Below are positions 3,792 to 42,861 of a stretch of DNA of 64,000 nt, in pieces. Position numbers and translations under genes: made by a program. Under the pieces are notes generated by a model. That model saw nothing but the letters and a program-made list of their open reading frames with translations, did no database searches and was not told where the DNA came from. Origin of the DNA: Candidatus Aenigmatarchaeota archaeon (GTDB taxonomy: Archaea > Aenigmatarchaeota > Aenigmatarchaeia > CG10238-14 > SCSR01); assembly GCA_038998335.1 (NCBI GenBank), contig JAVZHQ010000001.1, positions 672,609 to 736,608 on the forward strand, in the 5' to 3' direction. How positions within the stretch are numbered: position 1 is the stretch's first letter; each line of letters begins with the position of its first letter.

Positions 3792-6700
3792 TTAATAGTA
3801 GTATTCTTCTTCTGGTTTTTTCCAGAGTTTTATCTTAAGATAACCAAACTTCCATAAAACTATGAAAATTCCAGCAACTACCCCAACAACCACTAAGATT
3901 ATTAAAATTGTTGAAAAGTCTGATGATGGTTTTATAAACCTTTGAAGTAATTCGTCTACAATTTGCCTTAAAGTTTGATACCTCCTATTAGCTTCATTAT
4001 ACTTTGATAAAGCAGTTGAATAATCTCCTTGATTTAGAGCATTCTTGGCTTCATTCAATAAGTTTTTAATTTGGCCGAGCTCTGACCATAATGTTGAGTT
4101 AACTTTATCTCCCAAACTTTCCATATCCTTTTCTAAGGAGCTTACTCTTGAGGTAAGGTTATTTATTTTGCTTTCCAATTCTTTTTGGGTTTGAGGACAA
4201 TCTTGAGAACAAGTTATTTCTTCACCAGGTTCACAAATTTTATTACCACAATAAAATCCTGGACAATCAGAGCAGCTCGGATAACTTTCTCCTTCTTCAC
4301 AGATTCCATTATTGTTGCATGTAACTGAAGGACAATCTCTTGGGCAAGTTGTTCTATTCTCGTCTATATTGCAAACGCCGTCACCACAATAACAATCTTT
4401 TGGACAAGAAGTTGAATTTTCTTCTACATCGCATACCCCATTTCCACATTTTTGCTCTACGCATAAGTTTAACGCTCTGTCACAAACTTTTCCTGTAGGA
4501 CAACCACAATCTAAACAACAATTATCTTTGTTTTCTCCTTTTGAAGATTCACACTTTCCATCCCCGCAAGAAGGTAAAATAGAAGTTACTTTTACTTTTA
4601 AACTTACTGTTTTTATCCCAGCATCACTTTCTATTCTAACATAACCTTCATATTCTCCTGTTCTAAACAAAGTGCCGATTATAGAATAAGTTTTTGATTT
4701 TGAAGGTTGAATAGTATCAGTACCATAAAAGTTTGTACTTGTGTTTTCCACTCCATAAACTTCTATGCTGTAAATAGTTACTGCTACCTTTCCGTTGTTT
4801 GTTAAAGTAATCTTTTGTTCAAACCTTTGACCAGAGACTGCTACAATTGAAATTTCTAAAGGCGAGACAGAAATTTTTGGTGTTTCTTTTATTGAAATAG
4901 AAACTGGTATGCTTATTGTTTTTCCAGCATATTTTACAAAAATTTTTCCGTTGAAATTCTTTTCACCGATTTCAAAAGTTAAAGAAACATTTTGGCTTTC
5001 ACCAACTTTAAGTTCTCTCTCAAAACTTATGCTGGTAAATTGTTTGATTTCATCTGAAGCTTCTACAAGCAAATCAGTTATATCGGAATTACCGATATTT
5101 TTTAAAGTTATGTTTGTTTTAAAAGTTTTATTTGGGTAGGATTCGCCAGAAATTGCTGAAGGAGTAACGTTAAGTAAAAAGTTTGGCTTTTCAAGACCGA
5201 AAGCTAGAACTTTTCCTCCTGTTGATTTACCACTAGCCAAAATCTCAACAAAAAATTGATCTAAATCTAAGCCAATAATTTCTGCCTGAAAATTTGTGCC
5301 ATAGTTTGTGAAATCTCCTTGTTTATATAAAGACAGATCGAAAACTTTCCATACTCTGTAACTAAGGTTTGCGTTTTGATCGCTAGAGGAAACCAATAAA
5401 GCTAATCTTTTTTGGTCTTTGTTCCAATCAGTTTGCTTCACATCTATAATAATTTCTCCAGGGACTATCAGTCCGTCCATTCTTTCAACAAGATTGTTGC
5501 TGACAACTTCTCTTGCGCTAATTTTAACTCCGGAAATTTGTATATTGTCAAATGGGATGTTATAGCTTTTTGGTAATTTTTCATTTATCACCCAGAACTT
5601 TCCGACATTAAGGTAAAGATTTGGAAAATAAGAAAAAGAGTATTGAGTTGTTGTATATCCTGGATAAGTGTAAAGAAAAGAAGTGGTAGAAGGTGTTAGA
5701 GGATTTCCAGATGAATCTTTTACATCAAGAAAAAGAAAAAATTCTTTTTCCTTGGTTGGCCATTCAGGTAAAAGTTTCCAGTTGATTGAATAGCTACCAT
5801 AATTTTCGTTAAGGATGTTTAAACCATAAGCAAAAACAAAAATTGAAGCGTTAAGGCTTGGTGGACTAGCTGAAACTTCGTAAGTATAAACACCAAGCTT
5901 TTCAGGAGCAACAAAACAAGTTTGGTTTATACAAACTGAGCCTGAAAAAGTGCAAGTACACATGAGATTGCCTGTTGAAATATCCTTTATTTTAGCTGTC
6001 TTACCTTCGCAATTATCGCCTTGAATAATTGCTTTTACTGTCTCACCCTTTCTTACTGCAGGAGTTCCTGAAAGAGTTCCTAATAATTGAAAGCTAGTAA
6101 TGTTACAAGGCAATGGTGGCAAAACTTTAACATAAGAAAAACAAGCAGTAGATTTTGGTTCTGAACCAATCTGGTACGGAATTGCAACTTTAAAGTAGGT
6201 TTCAATTTCTTTTTGAACAGTTGGATAATAACATTCTAAGCTTATTCCGTCTCTTGATAGACCTTGGTCAACTAAGTTGTCAACTGTTACTACTTCTTCT
6301 TCAAGATAATCAGCACACTGCTTATGTAGTTTATTATAAGTAATCACGCTTCTCCAAGTAATTGAAGTATCTTTTCCATTTTTCAGCTTGAGTGTAAAGT
6401 TTGCTTTTCTATCACTATAAACTGTTTTGCTAGAAGGCTCTATAACACAATAAGGTTCGTTTGGTATATCTTTAACTTCTATCTTAAATATCGGGGAGAA
6501 GACATCTCTGTTTTTATTTCTTAGGTGAATTCTGCAGGTCCAGTTTCCTGCTTTGTCGACAAATATTTTTCCTGTGTAGGTTTCTTTTATTTGATCCTCC
6601 ATAGTACTTGAAACACAAGGAGTTGACGGCCTTCCTACATAAGGATCACATTCGTCTATCCAACCTCTAACATCATTTTCATCTGGTGGAACTATACCTG

Positions 6701-8702
6701 GCGGAAAACAATGAAGATTTGTATGGCACCTATATTGTTCCCTACCACACTTTTCCGGACTTTCTAAGGTTTCCCAGAGTTGCCAAGTTACTGTCACTAA
6801 ACTATTGACTATTACTCCTGTTGGAGGATACTCTATCCTCCCTATAGAAAATGGCTCTGAAATATTAATAGTTATTGGTGCAGGACCTTCCTGCCCGGTT
6901 ATATTGATTGTTCTTGCTAGAGCATCATCCCACCATTCGTCTATCCTTCCATCTTTGTCTGCATCAAAATTTGAAATTCTCGTATGAGCCCAAATCATAA
7001 CTCTTTGATTTCCTGTTGTTATAGGATAGAAGGAAGCTGGAAGTTTGCATCGAACAGTTATATTTTTCTGTGGTGTTAAAGCTATTTCAGAAGTTAAAAC
7101 TTCACAGGTTGCACCTTCTGGACAACTTCCTCTTTCGTTTGCACAACCTCCTCTATTGTTTTTAGCATCAAAGTAAAGGTCTACTCTTCCTTTTCCGTCT
7201 CTAGTTTCCCATGGATTGTTAAAATCAGAAACGTTCCAAAATTCTACTCCCACAAACCAATCTGTTTGCTCCTTTGAACCAACATTTTTAATAACAATGT
7301 TTACAGTTATATTATAATTCTGAAAGACTTGAGCTGTTCCTTGAGTAATTTTGTTTACAGAAACTTCTTCTATCCATGAATCATACATAACGTTACATTC
7401 ACACTCACTAGAGTTTTTATTTTTATATTCCCTTACTTGGTAAGCTGAAGAATATTTTTCATACTTGTAGTACTCTGGCTTAGAACATTTTACTGGGTTT
7501 TCTGTGTTGTCAGGATAAACTCCAGTAAAGTAAGAGCAATCTACATGATACTTACAATTGTTATCACATGAATAGGGATTTTGGGACCAACCAGGAGGTT
7601 TTTCGTCACAGGCTTCATCAGCACCACATGCAAACTCGCATTGAGCTCCACCATTATTACAGTTTCTTTCTGTACCTCCACTACAAACTGTACAATTCAC
7701 GCATTTTTTTGTTGTATTATCACATCTCCATTTTCCACCTGACCAAATACAATGATTATTATCATCGCAAGGACAATCTTCACGATTTTGTTTACATACA
7801 CCAGTTTTTTTGCAACAGTAATAACCTGAAGCACAATCAGAGTCAGATTGGCAAGAAGTTAAACAATTACCATTTCTACAGGCATAAGGCGAACAATCTG
7901 TTGAATATAGAAAACAAGTTTCTCCACATTTTTTTCTAACAGTTCCATCGCATGTACTATAACCTACAGGTTTTTCATCACATTCCTCACTCGCACCACA
8001 AGCTGACTCACATACAATCTCAACATTACAACCAACTGTTTCACAATCCCAAATCCCTGTAAATTCTATGCAACTTTTAGGAGTACCATAACATCTTTTG
8101 TATTGATTTGAATATTTACACCCTGCTAATTCGCATCTTTCCTTTCTTGTCTGTTCATCAGAAATTTCATTATAGGAGTCACATGACTTAGGAGTACCTT
8201 TACAAATTAAAGAAGAGGGAGGATGGTACAGCCCATTCCTGTCACCAAATTTCTTCCATTGATAGGAACCTAGACATTCGATGCACTGCTTTTCGCTTTT
8301 ATCCCATACGCCCATGTATTTGTGTTCTTTACATCCCCAGTCCCAATAATCTATACTGACTACGCAAGGCTCACCATTCCATTTATTGACATCTGGGCAC
8401 CTATACTCTTCACAAGCACAAGTGTTTGGTACTTCTTCTGGTGGGATGCCATCAGGACAACTACTCATACCATAGTAAATATAACCTTCACACCATTCTC
8501 CAAAATCCTGGCACTCGTTATTTTTATTTATTAAACATCTAGAAGTTCCTGAAAGATCGATTACTGCTTCGAAACAATAACCACAACCTAACACACCTAT
8601 CCAGTCCCCAGCGCATCTATAGTGACAACCAGCCCTCGCATCAGTAAATAGAACTAAAAAAGTTAAGAAAAACGATAATAAAACTATTTTATACCATTTC
8701 AT
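3792..8702 (-). CDS. Giant (~1636 aa) cysteine-rich secreted surface protein with N-terminal signal peptide, tandem Cys repeats, coiled coil and C-terminal TM anchor
   Basis: Signal peptide MKWYKIVLLSFFLTFLVLFTDARAG; >100 Cys in EGF/laminin-like spacing; five ~21-aa CGxGxC..CPxDC repeats (nt ~4194..4568); heptad-rich segment then TM ILIILVVVGVVAGIFIVLW and cytoplasmic tail KKPEEEYYY; many N-x-S/T sequons. Longest ORF starts TTG at 8714. Confidence 0.75.
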   Translation of the reverse strand: MKWYKIVLLSFFLTFLVLFTDARAGCHYRCAGDWIGVLGCGYCFEAVIDLSGTSRCLINKNNECQDFGEWCEGYIYYGMSSCPDGIPPEEVPNTCACEEYRCPDVNKWNGEPCVVSIDYWDWGCKEHKYMGVWDKSEKQCIECLGSYQWKKFGDRNGLYHPPSSLICKGTPKSCDSYNEISDEQTRKERCELAGCKYSNQYKRCYGTPKSCIEFTGIWDCETVGCNVEIVCESACGASEECDEKPVGYSTCDGTVRKKCGETCFLYSTDCSPYACRNGNCLTSCQSDSDCASGYYCCKKTGVCKQNREDCPCDDNNHCIWSGGKWRCDNTTKKCVNCTVCSGGTERNCNNGGAQCEFACGADEACDEKPPGWSQNPYSCDNNCKYHVDCSYFTGVYPDNTENPVKCSKPEYYKYEKYSSAYQVREYKNKNSSECECNVMYDSWIEEVSVNKITQGTAQVFQNYNITVNIVIKNVGSKEQTDWFVGVEFWNVSDFNNPWETRDGKGRVDLYFDAKNNRGGCANERGSCPEGATCEVLTSEIALTPQKNITVRCKLPASFYPITTGNQRVMIWAHTRISNFDADKDGRIDEWWDDALARTINITGQEGPAPITINISEPFSIGRIEYPPTGVIVNSLVTVTWQLWETLESPEKCGREQYRCHTNLHCFPPGIVPPDENDVRGWIDECDPYVGRPSTPCVSSTMEDQIKETYTGKIFVDKAGNWTCRIHLRNKNRDVFSPIFKIEVKDIPNEPYCVIEPSSKTVYSDRKANFTLKLKNGKDTSITWRSVITYNKLHKQCADYLEEEVVTVDNLVDQGLSRDGISLECYYPTVQKEIETYFKVAIPYQIGSEPKSTACFSYVKVLPPLPCNITSFQLLGTLSGTPAVRKGETVKAIIQGDNCEGKTAKIKDISTGNLMCTCTFSGSVCINQTCFVAPEKLGVYTYEVSASPPSLNASIFVFAYGLNILNENYGSYSINWKLLPEWPTKEKEFFLFLDVKDSSGNPLTPSTTSFLYTYPGYTTTQYSFSYFPNLYLNVGKFWVINEKLPKSYNIPFDNIQISGVKISAREVVSNNLVERMDGLIVPGEIIIDVKQTDWNKDQKRLALLVSSSDQNANLSYRVWKVFDLSLYKQGDFTNYGTNFQAEIIGLDLDQFFVEILASGKSTGGKVLAFGLEKPNFLLNVTPSAISGESYPNKTFKTNITLKNIGNSDITDLLVEASDEIKQFTSISFERELKVGESQNVSLTFEIGEKNFNGKIFVKYAGKTISIPVSISIKETPKISVSPLEISIVAVSGQRFEQKITLTNNGKVAVTIYSIEVYGVENTSTNFYGTDTIQPSKSKTYSIIGTLFRTGEYEGYVRIESDAGIKTVSLKVKVTSILPSCGDGKCESSKGENKDNCCLDCGCPTGKVCDRALNLCVEQKCGNGVCDVEENSTSCPKDCYCGDGVCNIDENRTTCPRDCPSVTCNNNGICEEGESYPSCSDCPGFYCGNKICEPGEEITCSQDCPQTQKELESKINNLTSRVSSLEKDMESLGDKVNSTLWSELGQIKNLLNEAKNALNQGDYSTALSKYNEANRRYQTLRQIVDELLQRFIKPSSDFSTILIILVVVGVVAGIFIVLWKFGYLKIKLWKKPEEEYYY

Positions 8703-9690
8703 TTTTAACACCAATCAAAATAATCCGATTATCATAAGAATAGTAAAATACGACATTTTTACCGTTTCTCGCTATTACCGAATTTTCACATTTTTTGCAT
8801 GGAGTTTGTGTTAATTTAGTTTTATCAACTGGTATGACAACAAATTTATTTAGGAAATTACCACAAACTTCATATTGGCAGTCGATTTTATAACCTGCAA
8901 ACTCTTTATCAAAATAATAAAGTAGTGTTAAATTTGCTCCTTCGCAGAAAGAGGATACCTCTACATATTTATTAAATTCTAAATTATCTATCGGACAATT
9001 AAAAACTTTTCTAAAAGATAATTCAGCTCTATCTTTTTCTTGAAGATTGTCTATCAAGATAGGTGGATATAAAGAATAGGTACCCATGTCTACCCATATC
9101 TTATAATTTCCATCAGTACACTTTACAACCAAGACAATAGTTGTAAAGTTTTTAATGTATGAGGAAAAATCGATAGAATGATTTTTAATTTCACAAGTAG
9201 AAAAAGATGGATATTTTTCTTTTATCTCTCTAAAAAGATAATCTAAAAAATTACTTTCTGAAACTTTTTTAAGCAAATTTGATTGGAAATCAAAAATAAA
9301 TGTCTTCAATTTATTTTCATAGACGCAATAAAATGATAATTGATATTCATTCTCGTATTCTTTTGAATCATAAAATTTACAATTTTCCAATTCTTCCCAT
9401 ACTTCTGGTTCTTCCCAAAGAAAGCTCCATCCATTCAGCTTGTAACTAATATTTCCACTTTTATACTCTGTATAGAAAGGCCTTCCGTTACAAACAAGCC
9501 AAAATTCACCATTATCGCCAAAACCATTTATTTTTTCTTTGACAATCTTACAAAATTCCAACTTTTCTTCAAGTAAATTTATCACTCTATTTCTAATATT
9601 ATTTGGAACTACTAAAAAGTACCAATAACAAATCACGATAATGACTATACCAAGTATTAAGAAAATCAAAGTTAATATCTTAATATTCAT
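8689..9690 (-). CDS. Membrane-anchored (N-terminal TM) Cys-containing extracellular protein, 333 aa, unknown function; co-transcribed with giant surface protein
   Basis: ATG start; N-terminal TM LILGIVIIVICYWYFLVV; stop overlaps start of 3792..8702 gene by 14 nt. Confidence 0.45.
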   Translation of the reverse strand: MNIKILTLIFLILGIVIIVICYWYFLVVPNNIRNRVINLLEEKLEFCKIVKEKINGFGDNGEFWLVCNGRPFYTEYKSGNISYKLNGWSFLWEEPEVWEELENCKFYDSKEYENEYQLSFYCVYENKLKTFIFDFQSNLLKKVSESNFLDYLFREIKEKYPSFSTCEIKNHSIDFSSYIKNFTTIVLVVKCTDGNYKIWVDMGTYSLYPPILIDNLQEKDRAELSFRKVFNCPIDNLEFNKYVEVSSFCEGANLTLLYYFDKEFAGYKIDCQYEVCGNFLNKFVVIPVDKTKLTQTPCKKCENSVIARNGKNVVFYYSYDNRIILIGVKNEMV

Positions 9691-31419: not shown

Positions 31420-32171
31420 TGGTAGTTTGTGTAATTCATGCAGGTGGAAAAGGAGAAAGACTTTTACCTTTAACTTTAACAACACCAAAACCTTTGATAG
31501 AAATTGGTCTAGAGAAAAAACCTTTGATTTACTGGAGCATGCTTCCTGCCATAAGCTATGGAATAAAAAAGTTTGTTATAACAACGAATTACTTAAGCGA
31601 GAAAATTGAAGAGTATTTTAAGAGAGAAGAATGGAAGGATTTTGAAATAGTAATTTATAGAGAAAAAGAAAAATTAGGAAGTGCAGGAGCAACAAAGTAT
31701 TGCATAGAAGAAGGAATCCTAGACAAAAAAGAAACTGTTCTTATGCAAAATGCTTCTGACATAACAAGAAATTTTATAGCAGAACTTCTTAAATATCACA
31801 AAAAACAGGAAGAAAAAGGTTTCGAGTTAACAATAGTATGCGCTGAAAGATGCGTGATACCTTCCAGCAAAGTAGAATATAATATAAAAACAGGAAAAGC
31901 TTTAAGCTTGAAAAGAAAGCCAATTCATGTTTGGGATAAGGGAAGTGCAAGCCATACAGGAAGTTTTGTTTTTAGCCCAAAAGCTTTAGGAAAGTTTGAG
32001 AACGTTAAAATACCTTCAAACCCTGAGGATAGTGTTGTTCAAGATTTGATAGAAGAAGGGAAAGCTTGTGTTTATGTTACTGATACATGGATACCGATAA
32101 AATATTATTCAGATATAGAAGAAGCAAATAAAATTGATTTAAGAGAATTTATACTTGGAAGGCAGGGGTAG
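31419..32171 (+). CDS. Sugar-phosphate nucleotidyltransferase (NDP-sugar pyrophosphorylase)
   Basis: VIHAGGKGERLLPLTLTTPKPLIEIG N-terminal motif; longest ORF begins TTG at 31416, ATG 31419 gives ATGA overlap with trm5 stop; stop codon lies inside 5' end of tRNA-Leu. Confidence 0.7.
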   Translation: MVVCVIHAGGKGERLLPLTLTTPKPLIEIGLEKKPLIYWSMLPAISYGIKKFVITTNYLSEKIEEYFKREEWKDFEIVIYREKEKLGSAGATKYCIEEGILDKKETVLMQNASDITRNFIAELLKYHKKQEEKGFELTIVCAERCVIPSSKVEYNIKTGKALSLKRKPIHVWDKGSASHTGSFVFSPKALGKFENVKIPSNPEDSVVQDLIEEGKACVYVTDTWIPIKYYSDIEEANKIDLREFILGRQG

Positions 32172-32247
32172 CCAAGTCTGGTCAAAGGCGCAGGCTTCAG
32201 GAGCCTGTGGCTTAGTGCCTTCCTGGGTTCAAATCCCAGCCCCTGCA
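32162..32247 (+). tRNA. tRNA-Leu (anticodon CAG), class II with long variable arm; no encoded CCA
   Basis: Acceptor GCAGGGG/CCCCTGC + discriminator A; D-arm GCC..GGC; anticodon stem CAGGC/GCCTG loop TTCAGGA; 15-nt variable arm; T-arm CTGGG-TTCAAAT-CCCAG. Confidence 0.85.
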
Positions 32248-32316
32248 CTAATTTAATTTAAAAGAGTTAAGATTATGATCATGCACCAAAGATTAAGAAA
32301 GTTTTAAAAAGTAGCT

Positions 32317-32817
32317 CTAGATTAAATCGACCATATAGTCATATTTGTACTCTTCTATGATTGAAGATGTTTCGTAATCCTTAATTATTCCAGGAAACTT
32401 CTTCCTAATTTCACTTATTATTTCATCGAAATGTTTGAGATTTTTAGCAGCGATGTTTATTATGAAATCCCATTTTCCTGTAGTTTTTGCTACATACACT
32501 ATATTTGGGTGTGTAATTAAAAATGAAATAAAGGATTTTTCAAGTTCTTCGGTCAGGTTAGAAAGAGTTATATTAACGAAGGCATACACAGGATAACCTA
32601 AAATTAAGGGATTTAAAACAGTATGAAAAAATCTTATTACTTTAAGTTTTTCCATTCTTCTAATCCTGTATAAGATTGTATCTCTTTGGATACCAGTCTT
32701 TAAGGAAATATCACTAATTGGAAGCCTTGCATTCTTGTCCAATACTTTTAATATTTTTTTATCCTTTTCGTCAAGCTTAACCACTCTACCGGGTTCTGTT
32801 AAGTAATCTTTTTGCAT
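32317..32817 (-). CDS. lrp: Lrp/AsnC-family transcriptional regulator
   Basis: N-terminal HTH LDEKDKKILKVLDKNARLPISDISLKTGIQRDTILYRIRRMEKLKVI and C-terminal RAM-like domain. Confidence 0.85.
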   Translation of the reverse strand: MQKDYLTEPGRVVKLDEKDKKILKVLDKNARLPISDISLKTGIQRDTILYRIRRMEKLKVIRFFHTVLNPLILGYPVYAFVNITLSNLTEELEKSFISFLITHPNIVYVAKTTGKWDFIINIAAKNLKHFDEIISEIRKKFPGIIKDYETSSIIEEYKYDYMVDLI

Positions 32818-32922
32818 ATTTTCTTATTTAAAAAAATAAATTGATAAATATTTCGTTTTATAAGAAAAAATTTTTAGAAAAATTTATTAATTAAAAAAAT
32901 GCTTTTTTAAAAGGCGAATAAC

Positions 32923-33309
32923 ATGAGCAGAAGAAGAGAAAGAATAAGATTATCTTCAGGTGTAGAATGGTATTTAGAAGAAAACAGTACTCGAAGAGAA
33001 AACTGTCTAGCCATTTTAGCACGCAGAACGGAAAACTGTTTGTTTGAATTAACACCAGCTACTATTTGGGAAGAGTTAATGAAGAATAGCAAGTATGCTA
33101 ATGTTTATAATCTCTCAAGCAGACCAATTGAAAATGAAGAAAGCGTAGCCTATATGCTATTTGACCTACCTCCAGAATTTTCTAGGCAGTTGCTTCAAAG
33201 ATATAGAAAAAAAGGATACTTGGAAAGAAAAGATGTAGAAGAAGTATACAATTCTGTTTGTAAATCCCAACACAAAAAAGTCTTCTTTAAAAATTCAGAA
33301 ATCGTTTAG
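32923..33309 (+). CDS. Hypothetical protein 128 aa (Arg-rich N-terminus, internal RRENCLAIL/RRTENCLFEL repeat)
   Basis: ORF track only; weak. Confidence 0.3.
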   Translation: MSRRRERIRLSSGVEWYLEENSTRRENCLAILARRTENCLFELTPATIWEELMKNSKYANVYNLSSRPIENEESVAYMLFDLPPEFSRQLLQRYRKKGYLERKDVEEVYNSVCKSQHKKVFFKNSEIV

Positions 33310-33560
33310 AGTTAGCTTGTTATCTAATACTGGAGCGCTGAAAAGATGAGTTCAGAAACATGTTCATATCTAAATTTATTTAAAAGCTGTAATTTCCTTT
33401 ATTAAATTTAAACTTTATCCGAAAACTTTAAAAGAAAGAAACCAGCACAACTTCCTTAAAAACTTATCGGTTAATTTTATATTCTCGATTTTTTATGCTG
33501 TTAATAATAGATGATTCCTTTGATTTAAAAGGATGAAAAAAATCCTTAGGAGGCGAAAAA

Positions 33561-34857: not shown

Positions 34858-35395
34858 CCTCAAAATTCCTTATAGGATAAACTTTTCTTGCTTCCTGCAT
34901 AACTCTGTTTTTTATTGAATTGTCTATGAGCTTTTTAACAAATTCAGAAATCTTTGATTTTTCCACTTCTTCTTTTATTATCTCACTGATCTTCTTTCTC
35001 ATAAACTTTTTTGTCTTGCTGTTTATTTTCCTTGAAACTATGGCTAAACCTTTTACCCTTATTTTAACTCCATCGCTAGTGGTTAAGTCTTGAATTGTAT
35101 CTATCCTCCTTATTTTCCTCAATACAAGCCTTGAAATGTAATCGCGCAAACATTCAGAACCGTCAAAATCGGCAAAAGCCTTTTCTCCTTCAACCCTTTT
35201 TATCTTGAAAGTAAACTTCATATAATATTTTGACAAATCGTTTGTTAGCTCGACTAAATTGATTGTTATTCTTCTCCCTATCAAAGAATTTGGCTCTTCT
35301 GCTAAAGTTTTCCCTATTTCCTTATTTTCTAGGTAATCAGGAGCTATTACTGCAAACCAATGCTTTGCCTTAGCTTTTTTCACCAAGCGCTTCAC
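34832..35395 (-). CDS. rps3ae: 30S ribosomal protein S3Ae (eS1)
   Basis: KHWFAVIAPDYLENKEIGKTLAEEP..GRRITINLVELTND..KFTFKIKRVEG..VRKTEVL matches archaeal S3Ae; GTG start. Confidence 0.85.
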   Translation of the reverse strand: MKRLVKKAKAKHWFAVIAPDYLENKEIGKTLAEEPNSLIGRRITINLVELTNDLSKYYMKFTFKIKRVEGEKAFADFDGSECLRDYISRLVLRKIRRIDTIQDLTTSDGVKIRVKGLAIVSRKINSKTKKFMRKKISEIIKEEVEKSKISEFVKKLIDNSIKNRVMQEARKVYPIRNFEVRKTEVLS

Positions 35396-36734
35396 CCAAT
35401 AACTTTTCTATTGTTTCTATAAATTTTTCTTCTTTTCCCTTTGGTATTATTCCACCTGCTGCTTTTTGATGGCCTCCACCTTCTCCCTCAAGCTGTGAAG
35501 TCGAAACTCTAATAATTTCTTTAAGGTTTATCGAGTTAAAAAGCTTCGGTATTCTTGCCGAAATTTTTACTTCATCATCAGAGTAAGCTAAACCAAACAA
35601 TGGCTTGCTATCTACTAAGGAAGAATTTAAAAGTATTGAAGTTATTGTTCCTATGAGAGTGTCTGGGATTTTATCTTTTGCTATCAAAAAGTTTGCGTGC
35701 TTTTTCTTGATTATAGGGTTTTCTTCCTTTATCCAAGCTAAAATCCTGCTTATTTCTTTTCTGTATTCTTCGAATATTTTCAAGGCTTCTTCTAAGGCTT
35801 CTTTATTTCTTAAACAAACTTTTATCGCTATATCTGTTCTTCCTAGCCTTCCGCAAGCGTTTATTAAAGTTGCAAACTCTCTTGCGTCTTGAATTTCTTC
35901 AGGCCTTTCAACCAAAGTGTAAATATCGCCAAAAATGTCTTCCGCGTTTTCAAGTTTAAACCTTTCGGCTATTAAAGCAGAAGCAAGCTTTCTTTGCTCT
36001 TCCATGCTTAAATCTTTAAGCTTTCTCCATTTTCCGTTTTCTTTCAAAGGAATCCCTATTTCAGACAAAAGTTGAACTGCATTGGATTCTGAGCCACTTA
36101 TTCCTGGGATGTAAGGATCAAAGGAAAGTTCTAAGGCTTTGTGAATAGCTCTTGTGTTTCTTCCGTAAAGTCTTAAACCTTTTGTTATTCTTACTTTCCC
36201 AAGGTTTTCCGCTTCTTCTAAAACTTTTTTTGCTAAACCTTTAAGCTCCCATTTTTCATCAATCATATCACCAATTGCTCCAACTATAGCTAAATCTATA
36301 AGCTCAGAATTTCTTATATCAAAAAATTTCGCAAAGAAATAACAAACTATTGATGTTGACACTTCTTCTTCTCCAAAAAGAATTGGGTTTAAATGATAAA
36401 GGTTAAAATGAGAAAAATCTTTTGGTTGATGATGATCTATAACAAAAACTTGAGTTTTTTCCAAAAATTTTTTTAACAAGTCAAGCTGCCCGCTACCCAA
36501 ATCAAGAAAAAGCAAAATTGTTTTCTCATCAAAATCAAGTTTTTCAACTTCCTTTGCAGTAAGCTGCTTGATTATTCTTAAAATAAAGTTTTTATTTTCT
36601 CTTAGAAGCATTTTAGCTATAATCGAAGCAGAAGTTAAGCCATCGCAATCAAAATGAGAAATTATAGCTACACTTTTCTCTTTTATCATCCCTTTAAAAA
36701 CTTTAGAAAACCTCTCAACATTTTCTAAAAACAA
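35370..36734 (-). CDS. DHH-family phosphoesterase, archaeal RecJ-like (GAN/HAN-type) nuclease
   Basis: DHH motif region VAIISHFDCDGLTSASI, DHHA1 GGGHQKAAGG; conserved position between rpS15 and rpS3Ae; TTG start (ATG 45 nt downstream). Confidence 0.75.
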   Translation of the reverse strand: MFLENVERFSKVFKGMIKEKSVAIISHFDCDGLTSASIIAKMLLRENKNFILRIIKQLTAKEVEKLDFDEKTILLFLDLGSGQLDLLKKFLEKTQVFVIDHHQPKDFSHFNLYHLNPILFGEEEVSTSIVCYFFAKFFDIRNSELIDLAIVGAIGDMIDEKWELKGLAKKVLEEAENLGKVRITKGLRLYGRNTRAIHKALELSFDPYIPGISGSESNAVQLLSEIGIPLKENGKWRKLKDLSMEEQRKLASALIAERFKLENAEDIFGDIYTLVERPEEIQDAREFATLINACGRLGRTDIAIKVCLRNKEALEEALKIFEEYRKEISRILAWIKEENPIIKKKHANFLIAKDKIPDTLIGTITSILLNSSLVDSKPLFGLAYSDDEVKISARIPKLFNSINLKEIIRVSTSQLEGEGGGHQKAAGGIIPKGKEEKFIETIEKLLGEALGEKS

Positions 36735-36738
36735 GCGA

Positions 36739-37164
36739 TCACTTCTGCACCAAAAGCTTTGCTTCTTCCGGAGAATACTTCCAATCTTTTGGCAAAATTC
36801 CTTTTCTTATGTAATACTTTGCTAACTTTCTTATTCTTGATTCTAAAAGTTGCAAACCTCTTAAAGAATGTTTATCAGCTTTATTCTTTTCTAAATGCTC
36901 TCTAAGTTTTACTGCCCTTCTAAAAAGACTTAGTAAATCTTCTGGATAAGAAGGATAAAGCTTATGCTCTTTCATTATTTGCGTTATGCTTTTTCCTGTT
37001 ATTGCTTTAACGTCAGGAATTCCGTACTGATCTCTTAAGATTAATCCTATTTTTGCAGAGGTGTTTCCTTCCTTAGCCAATTTTACTACCAATTCTTCAA
37101 CTTCCTCTTTCTTAAGCTTGACCCATTTTGGAACAAATCTTATTGGTAAGCGTTTAGAAGCCAT
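36739..37164 (-). CDS. rps15: 30S ribosomal protein S15 (uS15 / S13e)
   Basis: [75 protein letters not shown]; longest ORF starts GTG at 37173, ATG at 37164. Confidence 0.9.
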
Positions 37165-37169
37165 ATAAA

Positions 37170-37409
37170 TCACTTAAAGACCCAGATAAAAATCAAAGTC
37201 ACTGTTGAGAGAAAACTTAAAGAAGCTCCTACCATAGCTAAAATCGCAGGAAAACCTTGAGGTGAAACTATTGTTAAGCCTATGCCTAAGCTAAAGAAAA
37301 TTGCTCCTAAAAATATCAACAATATCGAAATGTTTTCTGCAGTTTCAATTCTATTCTTTCCCTTTATTTTTTCTTTCCATATATCTTGCACGCCTTTCAA
37401 TTTCTTCAA
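37170..37409 (-). CDS. Small 2-TM membrane protein (79 aa), doubtful
   Basis: ORF track; 59-nt overlap with bud32 3' end. Confidence 0.3.
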
Positions 37410-37992
37410 CCTTCCTCAAAACTTTTTCTGCATCCTTATATTCTTTTTTATAACCTTTAACTATATTATTCCAGCAAAGCTTTAAAACTTTAAAATGAGC
37501 TGATTTTATAGCTTCATAAAGCAAGTTTAGATCAACACCAAAATCTTCTATTCTTTTTGAAAAATCTCCTAGGCTAAAATCTAAAAAATAAATTTTATCG
37601 TCTTTTAAAATCATGTTGCTTGTTGTTAAATCGCCATGAACGATTCCAGAAGAATGAAGCTTTCCTATTAATTTACCGAGCTCAAAGCAAACTTTTTCTA
37701 TTTCTTCTTTTTTTGCTGAGTTTAAAAACTCTTTAAGCCTTATTCCTTCTATAAATTCCATTATTATCTTATGATTTTTCTCGTCAACAAAAAGAACTTG
37801 TGGAGTTGCTATTCCTATGCTTCTTGCTTCTCTCAAAAGACTGACTTCTTTTCTTGTCCTCACTTTTCTCAATTTTGTATCTATTTCTTCAATTCTGTAT
37901 TTTTTCTCTATTCTTTCCTTGACTAAAACCTTCTTTCCTTCAAAATAATCAAGATAAAGAATTGCCTCTGCTCCTCTGTAGATAATTTCCAT
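37351..37992 (-). CDS. bud32: Bud32 atypical protein kinase (KEOPS complex, RIO-like)
   Basis: 213 aa; RGAEAILY, VLVKERIEKKYR, catalytic loop HGDLTTSNMIL, FLDFSLG. Confidence 0.8.
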   Translation of the reverse strand: MEIIYRGAEAILYLDYFEGKKVLVKERIEKKYRIEEIDTKLRKVRTRKEVSLLREARSIGIATPQVLFVDEKNHKIIMEFIEGIRLKEFLNSAKKEEIEKVCFELGKLIGKLHSSGIVHGDLTTSNMILKDDKIYFLDFSLGDFSKRIEDFGVDLNLLYEAIKSAHFKVLKLCWNNIVKGYKKEYKDAEKVLRKVEEIERRARYMERKNKGKE

Positions 37993-38001
37993 AGAATCAG
38001 C

Positions 38002-41000
38002 TTAAGGGTCTTTTAAACCATTTTCTGTAATCTTAAAAACACATTCTCCTTCTGGTAAATCAGGAGCATCTACTAATCTAGCAATTCTTGCCCCTTCTTT
38101 TCCTCTTCTCAAGTAAATTCTATAAGTTGAGTTATGAACTAAATAACCGTTTGCCAAGAAGTTTGCGCAATCTGTTTCTATATCTATTAATTTTTCATTG
38201 TTTTGCAACTTTTTTATCGAGTAAATTTTTTCGAAGTTTAAGCCTAATAAACTACCAAAGATTTTGTTCACTTCTTCATACTTCTTACACAATTCTTCAA
38301 GCTCAGGATAGCTAACGTTATTTTCTAAATGCTTGAAATCATAGCTTATTCCAATTTCTTTAAGTAGTTGCATGAGCTTTTTCCTTTTCAAAGGAATTTT
38401 TTCTTCTTTTCTTAGCTTTCTATCTTCAAGCTTTTTGTTTTTTCTAGAAGATGTGAAACCAATCTCTTTAAACTTGTTTGGATTAACCATCAACCTATAA
38501 TATATTCCATGCTTATTTCGAACTATAGAGATAGTTGAATGAATACCAAGTCTTAATAGCAAAAGTTTAACGAAAACAAGGAAATCCTTATCTTTCATCG
38601 TTAAGTTAGCCATGCTGTTTATGCTTCCTTCTGCGTCAAACAAACCTTTAACAAAAGCTTTAATTACGCTTTTTCTTTCAAAGAACAACTCATAAATATT
38701 CTCAATTAGAAACTTGAAAACATTAGCTACATACTTGTTTGCAAACTTGAGCTCAAAACAATTTTTATTCTTAACCTTTGAAATTTTTGGTTCTACGTTA
38801 AAAACACTTTTGAACAAGCTAGCATAAAACTCTAGAACTTCCTTATTTTCATCTTTTATTTGGATAGAATTGTTATAAAAGTCCTTAGAACCATCGCCGA
38901 CAAAATATCCTAAAATCTGAGCTAGCTCTTCTGTCAGCTCTCTAACTTCTTTAACATCCTTATGCTTAACTGTTTCTTTAACTTCATACTCAATTTTTCC
39001 TATAAACCTTTCGATTCTTCTTATAATCTTTAAGGAAGTTGGAAGTGAAGAGTTTAAAATTCCTCTAAGATGTCTAGCTCCTATTCCTAAAAAGTTTTTG
39101 CATTCAGCATTATGCTTAATTGAGAAGATTTGTTGAAGTCTTTTTTTAACTTTCTCTGGGTTTTTGATTACGTATACCTTTTCTGGATTAAACTTCTTTA
39201 TCTTAAGCTTTTTCTCAGGAACATCGATTAATTTTGGAAGAATAAGATAATCTCCAGTTTTTAAATCCTTACTTTTAACTTCTTTAAAACCTTCTTCTGT
39301 AAAGATAAAAACAGTATGGTCTGGTGAAACTCGAAGGTTATGATTAATTTCTAATATTGTTGGCCTTTCAGTTTCAACTTTTTCCACAACTTTATAAAAT
39401 CTAAAACCATCTTTATAACCAAGTATATTCATAGGATTATGAACATCTTTTATCTTCTTCATTCCTTCGTTTGTTACTATTAAAGAGTTAGAATCCACAC
39501 AAAGATGCCCAAGCACATGACCCCCTACAGGAGCTGTTGGGTCGCCAAATAAAACATCAGGCCTTGCCATTACCTGATTGGTAATATAAACTGCTAAATT
39601 GTAAGCATCAGCAAGCTTTTGTAAATGATGCAAATGTTTGTTTAATTTTTGCTGTCTTTCAGCAAGCTCTCCTCTTCCTATGAATTCTGCTCTGAAATGA
39701 GAAGTAAGAGAATTATGAACCAAAAAACCGTTAGCTACATAACACTCATAGCCTGGTACTGTCATATCATAAACAAAAGTTGGTAGTTTTTTCAGTTCTT
39801 TTACTTTTTTTATCTTGAAAAAACCTAAGTTAGAGTTAACTATTTTCTTCAAGAATTCTAATTCTTTACAACTTCCAATTTTTTCAAAATTCTCTATAAG
39901 TTTTTTGAGAGTAGGTCTTTGTGGATAGTAGAATTTTCTGTAGGTTGAAAGCCCAAAACCAAATTTATTTTGAACCGTATAAACTGAAACTCCAAGTTTT
40001 TTTGCTATAACTTCTATTACATCCATAGAAATAGGAATAGGATCTTTGTGTAAGAATTTCTTATTTAAGAATTCAACCATTTTATTGAGCTTAGCGAGCT
40101 TCTTTTTGTGATTAAAACTAATGAATTTTTGAAAATTCATTATACTTTGACAATCTATTATTCTAATTTCATAAGTTTTTCCCCAACGATTCTTACAGGT
40201 CTTAATTTCTGTACTTTCTATACCAAACCTTAATAATGCATACTTTACTTGTTCTACTAATTTTTTACTTGCAGAAGCAAATATGATATGATGGATTCTG
40301 GCCTTTCTGGTAATTTTTTCCTTCCCTCTTCTGAAAATGGTATTATAAGGCTTTCCAAAATATACCGAACCTTCTGCATCAAATAAACCTCTCAAAAAGG
40401 CTCCTAATTCTTCATCAGTAGAAGTTAGAATTTCCTTTGGAATTTCTTTTTCTTTTGAACTTTTTCTTAAACCCAAACTCGTAAGAAATTCTATAAGTTT
40501 AACAGAATTTATATCGAAATAATAACAATTTTTGTTCTTAGCTCTTTTAATAGGCCTTGGAGAGAAAGAAAGTTTTCTAGCCAGAAAATGGTAATATTTT
40601 AAGAGTGTTTTGTTACTGTCCCAAAAATCTATCTTATTCCTACTTATCCCACCATCTCCCAAGAAATAACCTATAAACTCTAGCCATTCCTTCCCCAAAA
40701 ATTTTTTCCCTTTAACCTCTAATTTTTTAATTCCAACAACATAATCTCCTCTTTTTAACTCTTTAGCAAATTTCTCTTTTATCCCATCTTCATCTAAAAC
40801 AAAAAACCTATGGTTTGGTGTAACTTTAATCTTTCTCGTACCAACATCTATTTCTACCATCTTTTCAGGTAGCTTCTTGTATAAAGCTGAAACAAAAGCT
40901 GGTTCTTGAGAAAAATTGTTTAGGTCAACTGATAATAACGGATTTTCTGACATGACTTGTATTGGTTTAACGATATGACCATTAGCTGTTATTATATTTG

Positions 41001-42861
41001 TTTCAGGATGCACGCAATCGATGACTATTAAACCAATGTTTTTCTCTTCTATTAGTTCGTTAGCCTTTTCTACTAAAAGCATTTGATGCTCTGCGTTAAA
41101 AGCTCTTGCAACGAAAATGTTTTTAAGTGTTTCTTGTGGTTCAAGCTTTAAAGCTTTTGCTATGTTTAAAATTCTAGAAGGCGAAAAAGTATTTTCTGTA
41201 TCTATCCACAAACAGCTTCTTTTAAGTCCACCTTTTTCTTCAGGAAGTTGAACGTTAACTGCAAGCTGAAAGCCTAGTTGTGTCTTTCCTGAGTTATGAG
41301 AAACTAAACTGTTTGCTATAAAATTGTGTGTTCCTGGCACTTCTAGATCATAGACCTTTCCGTCGGGAGTAGAAATTTCAGAAATGTTAACCACTTTAAG
41401 ATAGTTAGAACGTGGAAGATTTCTTTCTCTTTTATAGCTTTTTACAACTTCAATTATTCTATCCTTTAACCTTATCGAAAACTTTCCAATCTCTTCCAAG
41501 AAACGGATTATGGAGTTTCTATCCCTAATACATAGTCTTAAATAAGTTACTTCTTTACCATTCCTTTTAGTTTTTTCTTTGTTTATGCGTGAAAAAATGC
41601 CGAACTTAGCTAAAAGAAGTTGTACATCCTCTATCAACCTACAGCTAGAACTTCTAAGACTAACTTCCCTTGAATAGGCTGGTAAGGTATAAATGTAAGA
41701 TTTTATACCTTCTTTACAAACTCTTATATGTTTTCTTGTTCTTTCTCTCATATCCAATACTACACTACCTTCACCGTCAAACAAGGCTGATAAGAATCTT
41801 GCTATCACATCTTTTGGTGATTGAAAAATTTGCTCAGGCACGTGTTTTTCTGAAGAACGATTAAAAATTCCTTCAAATTGCCTTAGAAACTCTCCTACCA
41901 CAACAGAATTTATATCAACTATTTTTACTTTTTCTTCAGCCTTTCTTCTACTCGTATCTATACCAAAAACAGACTTAACCAAGTACTCAAACCTTTCGAT
42001 AATATCCTTGTTCTTATTGACAATAGAAACTCTGGAAATTGTATTGGTCTTGCTTTGTGTTTCTTTCCATCCTTCCGAGATTATAAAACCTAAAATTTCT
42101 GCAAGTTCTGGAGTTAAAAAGGATGGCAACTTTGGTTTAGATAACTTACTTATTGGAGTATTCTTAGCAAGTTTAATTTGAGTGTTTAGTCTAACGTATT
42201 CTTTTGGAAATATACAGTCTGAAACCATCAATACAGCATCACCAACATGCATATTTTCTGCATTTTTCCAACCAAAAGGAGTTAAAAGAGGATGATTTGG
42301 AGTTACCGATAAAGTAATGCCATTCTCGAACAAAATTTTCAAAACTTTCTCGCAAGAATACACATGTAATTTTGTAGCAACCGTTGGTTTGACAGACCCA
42401 TTTAAAGTTAATATGGGCAGCCTTATAGGATATACTCCTTCAGGAAGATTCTTAGCGATGGAAGAAATTGGTACAATTCTACCATCACCTAGAGTTATTT
42501 TAGTATTTCCTACCAAACATCCATAAGCCCCGTACGTTTCTGTTATGGCTTGAGTTTGAATTCCTCCTCCCAACAAATTGTCAAGATTCTTGCTTCCTGT
42601 TGTTATTCTTAAAGCCTTTTCCTTTCTTTCAAGAATTTTGTCAGCAGACTCAAAACCAATATCGAGCATTTGTCTTACTGCGTTTATTATCTTAGCAGCT
42701 TGACCCTCGCCAATTTCAGCTATTCTTGCAAGCTCAGAAGGAGAAGTTACAGCAATAACCATAGGGTCAACATAACCTACTTCCCTAAGCTTTTGAGCTA
42801 TTTTCTCTCCAACTCCAGGAATATCCTCAAGCTTAATTTCTTTCTTCATTCTTTTTCCCAT
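38002..42861 (-). CDS. radA: DNA repair and recombination protein RadA interrupted by three in-frame inteins (host extein ~318 aa; precursor 1619 aa)
   Basis: Extein: HhH N-domain, [17 protein letters not shown]|...|SGKTQ (Walker A split), LIVID|...|[31 protein letters not shown]|...|[29 protein letters not shown]; each insert starts with Cys and ends with HN followed by Ser. Confidence 0.9.
38131..39501 (-). mobile_element. RadA intein 3 (457 aa) in [15 protein letters not shown] region with LAGLIDADG endonuclease domain
   Basis: CVDSNSL...YLVHN then STYRIYL; [14 protein letters not shown] and [12 protein letters not shown] motifs. Confidence 0.85.
39712..41016 (-). mobile_element. RadA intein 2 (435 aa) after LIVID (Walker B region) with LAGLIDADG endonuclease domain
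   Basis: CVHPETNII...FLVHN then SLTSH; [12 protein letters not shown] and [12 protein letters not shown] motifs. Confidence 0.85.
41293..42519 (-). mobile_element. RadA intein 1 (409 aa) in P-loop (G114/S524 junction) with LAGLIDADG endonuclease domain
   Basis: CLVGNT...LVSHN; [13 protein letters not shown] and [12 protein letters not shown] motifs; boundaries checked codon-by-codon. Confidence 0.85.

Follow-up and report, generated by a model that had tools for sequence, protein, structure and literature searches.

In the stretch of 64,000 nucleotides (nt) of a Candidatus Aenigmatarchaeota (DPANN) genome analysed here, which is designated the window, the gene for the recombinase RadA is interrupted by three long in-frame inteins (I1, I2, and I3). 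We favor, with a probability of about 0.88, the reading that these are three independent full-length class-1 inteins with endonucleases in a DPANN radA gene, which would be spliced out to leave a RadA of 318 amino acids (aa) and which would be mobile by homing. An original prediction made from the sequence of the window had proposed three complete inteins in this gene, mapped their boundaries by hand, and taken their number to imply ongoing homing in the population.

The radA precursor gene and its spliced product

The radA gene occupies positions 38002..42861 on the minus strand as a single uninterrupted open reading frame (ORF), which has an ATG start and codes for 1619 aa plus stop. No stop codon or frameshift occurs in its 4860 nt, and the reading frame is kept across all six extein/intein junctions. 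The precursor is composed of four extein segments and three inteins of 409, 435, and 457 aa, the inteins contributing 1301 of the 1619 residues (80%) and the extein 318 aa. I1 (precursor aa 115-523) is inserted between YGAYG and SGKTQL, starts with CLVGN, and ends with LVSHN; I2 (aa 616-1050) is inserted between LIVID and SLTSHF (start CVHPE, end FLVHN), and I3 (aa 1121-1577) between VLGHL and STYRIY (start CVDSN, end YLVHN). The boundaries of the original prediction are exact and in frame, with the junction residues, the first cysteine (Cys1), the terminal His-Asn, and the serine at position +1 (+1 Ser) all matching, and its figures of 1301 intein residues and a spliced RadA of about 318 aa agree exactly with the computed lengths. 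The features are as follows.

38002..42861, minus strand: radA precursor ORF (ORF call; hidden Markov model matches to Rad51/RadA, Intein_splicing, and LAGLIDADG_3; identical ORF in the Logan assembly)
42520..42861, minus strand: extein 1 (aa 1-114), HhH N-terminal domain and first half of Walker A (GAYG); 97% nt identity to L057
41293..42519, minus strand: intein 1 (409 aa), inserted at G114/S115 inside the P-loop; PF14890 E=2e-17, PF14528 twice, E=7e-24, TIGR01445/TIGR01443
42292..42303, minus strand: I1 block B, TPNH (motif)
42067..42105 (..ISEGW) and 41764..41805 (..FDGEGS), minus strand: I1 LAGLIDADG motifs; C-terminal end SHN
41017..41292, minus strand: extein 2 (aa 524-615), SGKTQ (rest of Walker A) through Walker B GLIVID (junctions and structure alignment)
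39712..41016, minus strand: intein 2 (435 aa), inserted at D206/S207 (extein numbering), directly after the Walker B Asp; PF14890 E=1e-23, PF14528 twice, E=2e-21
Within 40801..40824, minus strand: I2 block B, TPNH (motif)
40648..40686 (..LGDGG) and 40366..40407 (..FDAEGS), minus strand: I2 LAGLIDADG motifs; C-terminal end VHN
39502..39711, minus strand: extein 3 (aa 1051-1120), SLTSHF...GGHVLGHL (junctions and structure alignment)
38131..39501, minus strand: intein 3 (457 aa), inserted at L276/S277 (extein numbering), after GGHVLGH; PF14890 E=1e-14, PF14528 twice, E=4e-22
Within 39307..39330, minus strand: I3 block B, SPDH (motif)
38887..38925 (..VGDGS) and 38623..38664 (..FDAEGS), minus strand: I3 LAGLIDADG motifs; C-terminal end VHN
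38005..38130, minus strand: extein 4 (aa 1578-1619), to the C-terminus (junctions and structure alignment)

The concatenated extein confirms that the gene codes for an archaeal RadA, a recombinase of the RecA/Rad51 type. It scores 488 bits with the RadA equivalog model NF003301 (cut-off 259; residues 6-317 on model positions 2-315/316) and 476 bits with TIGR02236 (cut-off 361), matches the Pfam family Rad51 over the whole model, and carries an HHH_5 domain at residues 10-63. The alignment with the structure of Pyrococcus furiosus RadA (1pzn; E=3e-117) is free of gaps at all three junctions, as are those with the RadA proteins of S. solfataricus (2bke) and M. voltae (1t4g). The identity first assigned to the gene is thus borne out end to end, and the predicted junctions recur in the alignment of the deduced extein with RadA; an intein-free allele of a close relative (L083, see below) lacks precisely the three segments. 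Removal of the inserts restores the Walker A motif GAYGSGKTQ and the Walker B motif GLIVID followed by SLTSHFR: I1 lies inside the P-loop, I2 directly behind the Walker B aspartate, and I3 behind the post-L2 segment GGHxxGH. Such conserved functional motifs are the usual habitat of inteins. In this genome, radA looks single-copy.

Splicing and endonuclease domains of the inteins

Searched alone, each insert matches the family Intein_splicing (PF14890) with 63.7 (I1), 83.8 (I2), and 55.0 bits (I3), all above the gathering cut-off of 35.8, and the family LAGLIDADG_3 (PF14528) twice (E 1e-21 to 1e-24). The models for the N- and C-terminal splicing regions, TIGR01445 and TIGR01443, are matched by I1 and I2, and no match to either was obtained for I3 at E<0.01. 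Splicing blocks A, B, F, and G are present in each intein, as are Cys1, the terminal His-Asn, and the +1 Ser, of which Cys1 and +1 Ser are kept in every homologue inserted at the same site. In alignments with these homologues, block B (TPNH in I1 and I2; SPDH in I3, in which Ser replaces Thr and the His is kept) and the block F/G region are likewise conserved. Both LAGLIDADG motifs of each intein hold a conserved acidic residue followed by Gly (ISEG/DGEG in I1, LGDG/DAEG in I2, VGDG/DAEG in I3). The expectation that all three retain both LAGLIDADG blocks is therefore upheld with intact acidic residues at the catalytic Asp/Glu positions, and the block annotation agrees with the PF14890 matches for all three. 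Taken together, the motifs and family matches confirm the assignment as three class-1 inteins, each with a predicted monomeric double-LAGLIDADG homing endonuclease.

That the examination of the acidic residues can also give a negative outcome, and that decay occurs at the I3 site, is evident from the degenerate I3-type inteins of the proteins P0001 and P0011, which have lost these residues and approximately 70-90 aa; I3 of the window is full length and free of this decay. Sequence searches of the PDB with the inteins matched the Tli and Pho VMA inteins, PI-PfuI, PI-PkoII, and the Pho RadA mini-intein. I3 matches I-DmoI by sequence (E=5e-9) and also PI-PkoII. An AlphaFold2 model of I3 was built from an alignment of nine same-site sequences (mean predicted local distance difference test score, pLDDT, 57), of which only the endonuclease core (residues ~100-330, pLDDT 63-91) was used. 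This core superposes on I-DmoI with TM 0.63-0.71 over 162-178 columns, and the whole model has fold matches in the TliVMA intein, PI-PfuI, and PI-SceI.

The I3-type inteins (P0005-P0019 and the window) have in common a conserved helical insert, placed after the N-terminal splicing region and ahead of the endonuclease core (I3 aa ~100-190, window ~38930..39200), which carries the motif RQ(L/F)RR(I/V)LNQxYPT, has been lost in the shortened degenerate copies P0001, P0003, and P0011, and may be an extra DNA-binding module.

I1, I2, and I3 are ~27-31% identical to one another over partial alignments. Inteins at the same site as I1 are 42-54% identical to it in five metagenomic DPANN RadA proteins, those at the site of I2 54-70% (P0002, P0001, P0003), and those at the site of I3 27-44% in fifteen proteins of the database set P0001-P0019; I3 is, in addition, ~79% identical to a partial I3 in the genome L004. 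The low mutual identity, with each intein closest to same-site inteins elsewhere, indicates independent origins, i.e., that three unrelated inteins would have invaded radA independently. A derivation of the three from one another by duplication was considered and rejected, given ~27% identity and the closer same-site inteins elsewhere.

Empty and partly invaded alleles in relatives

A scan with the extein, which covered one genome per GTDB species, matched almost exclusively metagenome-assembled genomes of Candidatus Aenigmatarchaeota, followed by Micrarchaeota, Nanoarchaeota, and Pacearchaeota, and most of the radA genes found were uninterrupted. In a set of 5.8 billion proteins, 118 of the 120 best extein matches were intein-free proteins of 308-334 aa, the other two being proteins of 485 aa with mini-inteins. 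With the full precursor as query, the same set yielded 37 significant matches, a low number because intein and low-complexity words made up most of the word candidates, and the intein-free alleles surfaced only with the extein query. The gene order common to the relatives is that of an RPA-like OB-fold protein, radA, a Bud32/RIO-type kinase, a small ORF, and ribosomal protein S15. The most informative alleles are the following.

L083 (GCA_044343525.1; P0038): 96.1% nt identity over 4.8 kb upstream, extein 98% identical at the aa level (6 differences); no intein, all three sites contiguous
L057 (isolate JZ-1_201709_bins_53): 96.8% nt identity from the RPA gene through extein 2; I1 only
L001: syntenic relative; I2 and, at GSGK/TQ (the published Pho RadA site), a further intein of 505 aa with no relationship to I1-I3; neither I1 nor I3
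L002: syntenic relative; I2 and a degenerate I3
L003: syntenic relative; no intein
L004, L005, L050: radA homologues; I3 only

I1 of L057 is 98% (aa) and 97.7% (nt) identical to that of the window, and L057 lacks exactly the 1305 nt of I2 and the 1371 nt of I3. In the comparison of L083 and L057 with the window, the empty-site indels are precise at 1227, 1305, and 1371 nt.

Twenty further intein-bearing public RadA proteins, each with one or two inteins, make use of seven distinct sites: G114/S, K117/T, D/T near 145, x/T near 148, N/S near 181, D206/S, and 276/S277. The two P-loop sites, G114/S115 and K117/T118, are 9 nt apart (window 42520..42531 / 41278..41292) and are both used among the relatives, and in none of 21 intein-bearing genes are both filled; the K/T site is occupied in L001, P0007, P0012-18, and others, never together with the G/S site. 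At a distance of 9 nt, either insertion would destroy the target of the other intein. The pattern suggests mutual exclusion by target-site destruction, in line with the exclusivity in the 21 genes and with published work on MCM, where neighbouring inteins interfere (PMC10643990). The protein of L002 (P0001) has no P-loop intein, yet its Walker A motif reads APYGCGKTQ, with a Cys at the place of the +1 Ser of the I1 site.

Junction footprints and selection

Between the extein of the window and the empty allele of L083, 45 of 957 nt differ, and these differences are concentrated at the junctions: 16 fall on the 90 nt within ±15 nt of the three sites and 29 on the 867 nt elsewhere (17.8% vs 3.3%; Fisher p=7e-7), an enrichment which persists at ±30 and ±45 nt. 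Most junction changes are three bases apart, at third codon positions, and five of the six aa differences from L083 are located at most 8 residues upstream of the I2 or I3 site. In the comparison with L057, which shares I1, no differences occur around site 1 and the same clusters occur at sites 2 and 3. At site 3, the intein-bearing genes of the window, L002, and L005 code for GGHVLGH and the empty alleles for GGNVLAHM. Such clusters fit a co-conversion of flanking DNA as it would occur during homing.

The ratio of nonsynonymous to synonymous substitution rates (dN/dS) is 0.058 for the exteins against L083 (dS 0.20). For I1 against L057 it is 0.107 (endonuclease part 0.10), based on 28 nt and 8 aa differences at an unsaturated dS of 0.078, and only this intein comparison stands on firm ground. 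The values for I2 against L001 (0.13; endonuclease part 0.22) and for I3 against L004 (0.11; endonuclease part 0.08) were obtained at saturated dS of 1.2-1.6 and about 1.1, respectively, and saturation extends to the comparisons of I2 with L001/L002 and of I3 with L002/L050 (dS 1-5, one undefined). The host protein and all three endonuclease domains thus appear to evolve under constraint; the extein value argues for constraint on the RadA protein only, its strand-exchange activity being predicted. The synonymous divergence between the I1 copies of the window and L057 is below that of the flanks (5.0% vs 9.6% of synonymous codons, p=0.019), a weak hint of a recent spread. The homing first proposed from the intein load gains indirect support from comparative data, namely precise 0/1-intein indels in syntenic genomes of ~96% nt identity in the upstream flank, junction-clustered substitutions, and apparent purifying selection on the endonucleases.

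Proposed mechanism and alternative explanations

In the proposed mechanism, whose steps follow established class-1 intein and LAGLIDADG biology, radA would be translated as the 1619-aa precursor, in which Walker A is split (G/SGKT), Walker B is cut off from the next strand (VID/S), and the post-L2 GGHxxGH segment is likewise separated from its following strand. With these three regions interrupted, the precursor should be unable to bind ATP or to form an active filament. Each intein would then excise itself: an N-S acyl shift at Cys1 would be followed by transesterification to the +1 Ser, the terminal Asn would cyclise with the help of the penultimate His, and an O-N shift would complete the reaction. 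An ATP-binding RadA of 318 aa would require all three splicing events. At the DNA level, the comparative evidence suggests that intein-free radA alleles are cut, each empty site by the endonuclease of its cognate intein; repair by recombination from an intein-bearing copy would install the intein with short flanking tracts, and this repair step would itself depend on RadA. Homing of this kind would explain both the precise presence or absence of inteins between close genomes and the accumulation of substitutions at the junctions.

Several points weigh against this reading or limit its reach. The locus is real and looks functional, and the comparative data argue well for present or recent mobility of its inteins, with the activities of splicing and DNA cleavage deduced from sequence. 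The HINT part of the I3 model is of low confidence (pLDDT <50). The junction clusters equally fit selection for cleavage-resistant (immune) empty sites. The omega values of I2 and I3 are rough, since dS is saturated (>=1), and the purifying selection on the endonuclease domains could partly reflect a structural need of these domains for folding or splicing. Finally, the region is a mosaic and both available assemblies probably derive from the same short reads, so a chimera of strains is conceivable.

We consider it unlikely that the gene is dead or decaying, i.e., that at least one intein is unable to splice, making radA a pseudogene, or that the endonucleases are inactive relics, which persist only because the loss of an intein needs a precise deletion. 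The endonuclease decay described above for P0001 and P0011 demonstrates that such a fate is met at the I3 site in relatives. The window gene, however, is open over its entire length, possesses all catalytic residues for splicing and endonuclease activity, includes a full-length I3 unlike the degenerate copies, and has low dN/dS in the extein (0.058) and in the inteins (0.08-0.22).

Equally improbable, though compatible with mobile, spliceable inteins, is that the three elements are domesticated regulators which gate RadA activity by conditional splicing and are retained mainly for reasons other than homing. There is precedent in the extein-, temperature-, and single-stranded DNA-dependent splicing of a P-loop RadA intein, that of P. 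horikoshii (PMC4513877; PMC5790916), and all three inserts are located in ATPase or filament motifs, so the precursor would have to be inactive. A beneficial regulator should, however, be fixed, whereas the presence of each of these inteins varies between near-identical genomes and most radA genes of Aenigmatarchaeota are intein-free; moreover, the full endonuclease domains are conserved although regulation needs none.

The least probable alternative, and a very unlikely one, is an assembly chimera in which strains carrying I1 or I2/I3 were joined through the short conserved exteins (276 and 210 nt), in which case no actual DNA molecule would hold all three inteins. In its favor, related samples do contain close strains that differ in intein load, and the identity to L057 falls in steps, being 96.8% upstream of the I2 site and dropping downstream first to 92% and then to 86%. 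Against it, the ORF is perfectly in frame over six junctions, and an independent Logan assembly of SRR27170999 contains the exact 1619-aa protein on a contig of 16.4 kb, of which the 10,860 nt retrieved, spanning the whole of radA and its flanks, are 100% identical to the window. Real recombination, moreover, would account for the identity steps, as L057 and L083 are themselves mosaic to each other. Upstream of radA, the window, L057, and L083 are 94-99% alike. From window position 37722 to ~36370, L057 and L083 have the same sequence (identity 100%, and 99.3% in the final bin of 150 nt, to 36223), and over the same interval, 36223..37722, which includes the 3' end of the kinase gene, the S15 gene, and the start of a DHH gene, the window differs from both by ~4-24%. 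On the sequence comparison, the region is best described as a recombination mosaic among co-occurring Aenigmatarchaeota strains.

Beyond homing of three independent inteins, the locus might be regarded as a natural record of how inteins invade an uncultivated DPANN population over time (0, 1, and 3 inteins in alleles with flanks of ~96% identity), with P-loop inteins that compete for one homing site and a triple-gated AND-gate on recombination. This extension is rather unlikely as a whole; if true, the triple-gated precursor would be a post-translational AND-gate which links the spread of the inteins to the repair capacity of the host.

Other features of the window

The other large ORFs of the 64-kb window were checked for inteins, and none was found in them. 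Directly 3' of a tRNA-Leu(CAG) gene (32162..32248), a segment of ~1.1 kb (32252..33410) is absent from the otherwise 95%-identical L057; it holds an apparent helix-turn-helix regulator ORF (32317..32817) and small ORFs, and the indel adjoins the tRNA gene. Downstream of S15, positions 35370..36734 (minus strand) code for a DHH/DHH-CID/DHHA1 protein (Cdc45/RecJ/GAN-like), which is present in L057, L083, and L084 and absent at that position in L001 and L003, where S3Ae follows directly after S15. An ORF of 1640 aa (3792..8714, minus strand) gave no Pfam match at E<=1e-5; with a hydrophobic Cys-rich start at its N-terminus and a single C-terminal transmembrane segment (aa 1600-1621), it probably codes for a giant surface protein.

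Comparison with known inteins

The intein mechanism invoked here is textbook, and LAGLIDADG inteins in ATPase motifs of replication and repair proteins are well-known selfish elements. For the RecA/RadA family, two insertion points in RadA, c1 and e, were described by Topilina et al. (2015; PMC4513877), the former where the P-loop ends (Thermococcales and A. profundus), the latter in Nanoarchaeota archaeon SCGC AAA011-L22, with an intein at residues 278-774. The RadA inteins of that survey occur one per protein, and two inteins are listed for a single entry, the RecA of Thermobifida fusca (PMC4513877). Nine RadA inteins were reported in archaea by Novikova et al. (PMC4760082, online November 2015), and a survey of 2023 covered 2 DPANN genomes, with no multi-intein genes. 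Nothing specific on inteins in DPANN or Aenigmarchaeota RadA, or on a RadA with three inteins, was found in the open-access literature. The G/SGKT and the Walker B D/S sites are outside both published lists and were found here in several unannotated metagenomic proteins, and with these two included, at least seven RadA insertion sites are now on record in DPANN, against two points in the 2015 survey.

The view that three inteins in one recombinase gene are at the high end of known loads holds for the RecA/RadA family, in which published surveys list at most two (PMC4513877), and does not hold as a record across genes, since genes with four sites or four inteins are known from other hosts (PMC10643990). 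Among the matches listed, cluster representatives, and best-80 loci that define the scope of this statement, no other three-intein RadA was present, the maximum being otherwise two; an exhaustive HMMER search with I3 against 1.84 billion cluster representatives yielded 26 proteins at E<=1e-30, the longest of which has 1391 aa, a length that corresponds to two inteins. Among the searches made, the window radA is thus the most heavily invaded gene of the RecA/RadA family, a finding which a specialist will consider useful rather than surprising. Near-identical alleles with 0, 1, and 3 inteins and a competing P-loop intein are ready substrates (empty sites) and donors, and the set could be used for studies of homing, co-conversion, and interference between neighbours in a lineage without a genetic system. 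To protein engineers, the three dissimilar +1 Ser inteins could serve as candidate orthogonal splicing modules.

The closest counterpart of I1 is the Pho/Thermococcales RadA intein at point c1 (GSGK/T), which it resembles in host protein, Walker A location, class-1 chemistry, and, as predicted here, a precursor that is inactive before splicing. I1 differs from the inteins of the K/T site by its insertion three codons upstream (G/SGKT), by +1 Ser instead of Thr, and by an identity of ~28%, and the Pho RadA intein is, unlike I1, a mini-intein of 172 aa without endonuclease. The point e intein (497 aa, ~residue 277, from a DPANN archaeon) is like the I3-type inteins in position and size class (those in 15 other DPANN RadA proteins mostly have 393-496 aa, I3 of the window 457 aa), and judged from these coordinates only, by position and size, the I3 site is most probably point e.

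Multiple inteins in one gene are known from the RFC of M. jannaschii, which has three, and from the Pyrococcus ribonucleotide reductases, which have two to three. In haloarchaeal MCM/CDC21, four insertion sites are used and neighbouring inteins interfere with one another (PMC10643990). As in the window radA, such multi-intein genes hold unrelated endonuclease inteins at different conserved ATPase motifs in polymorphic combinations; the window gene differs from them in belonging to a DPANN lineage and in coding for the recombinase itself. At the level of domains, I1-I3 share with PI-PfuI, PI-PkoII, and the Tli and Pho VMA inteins a HINT domain into which a two-motif LAGLIDADG core is inserted, and I-DmoI is the solved LAGLIDADG endonuclease which matches I3 in sequence and fold. 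From the solved LAGLIDADG endonucleases the three inteins differ by identities of 16-25% and, in the case of I2 and I3, by extra segments of ~90-100 aa, one of which is the helical region with the RQ(L/F)RR(I/V)LNQxYPT motif of the I3-type inteins.

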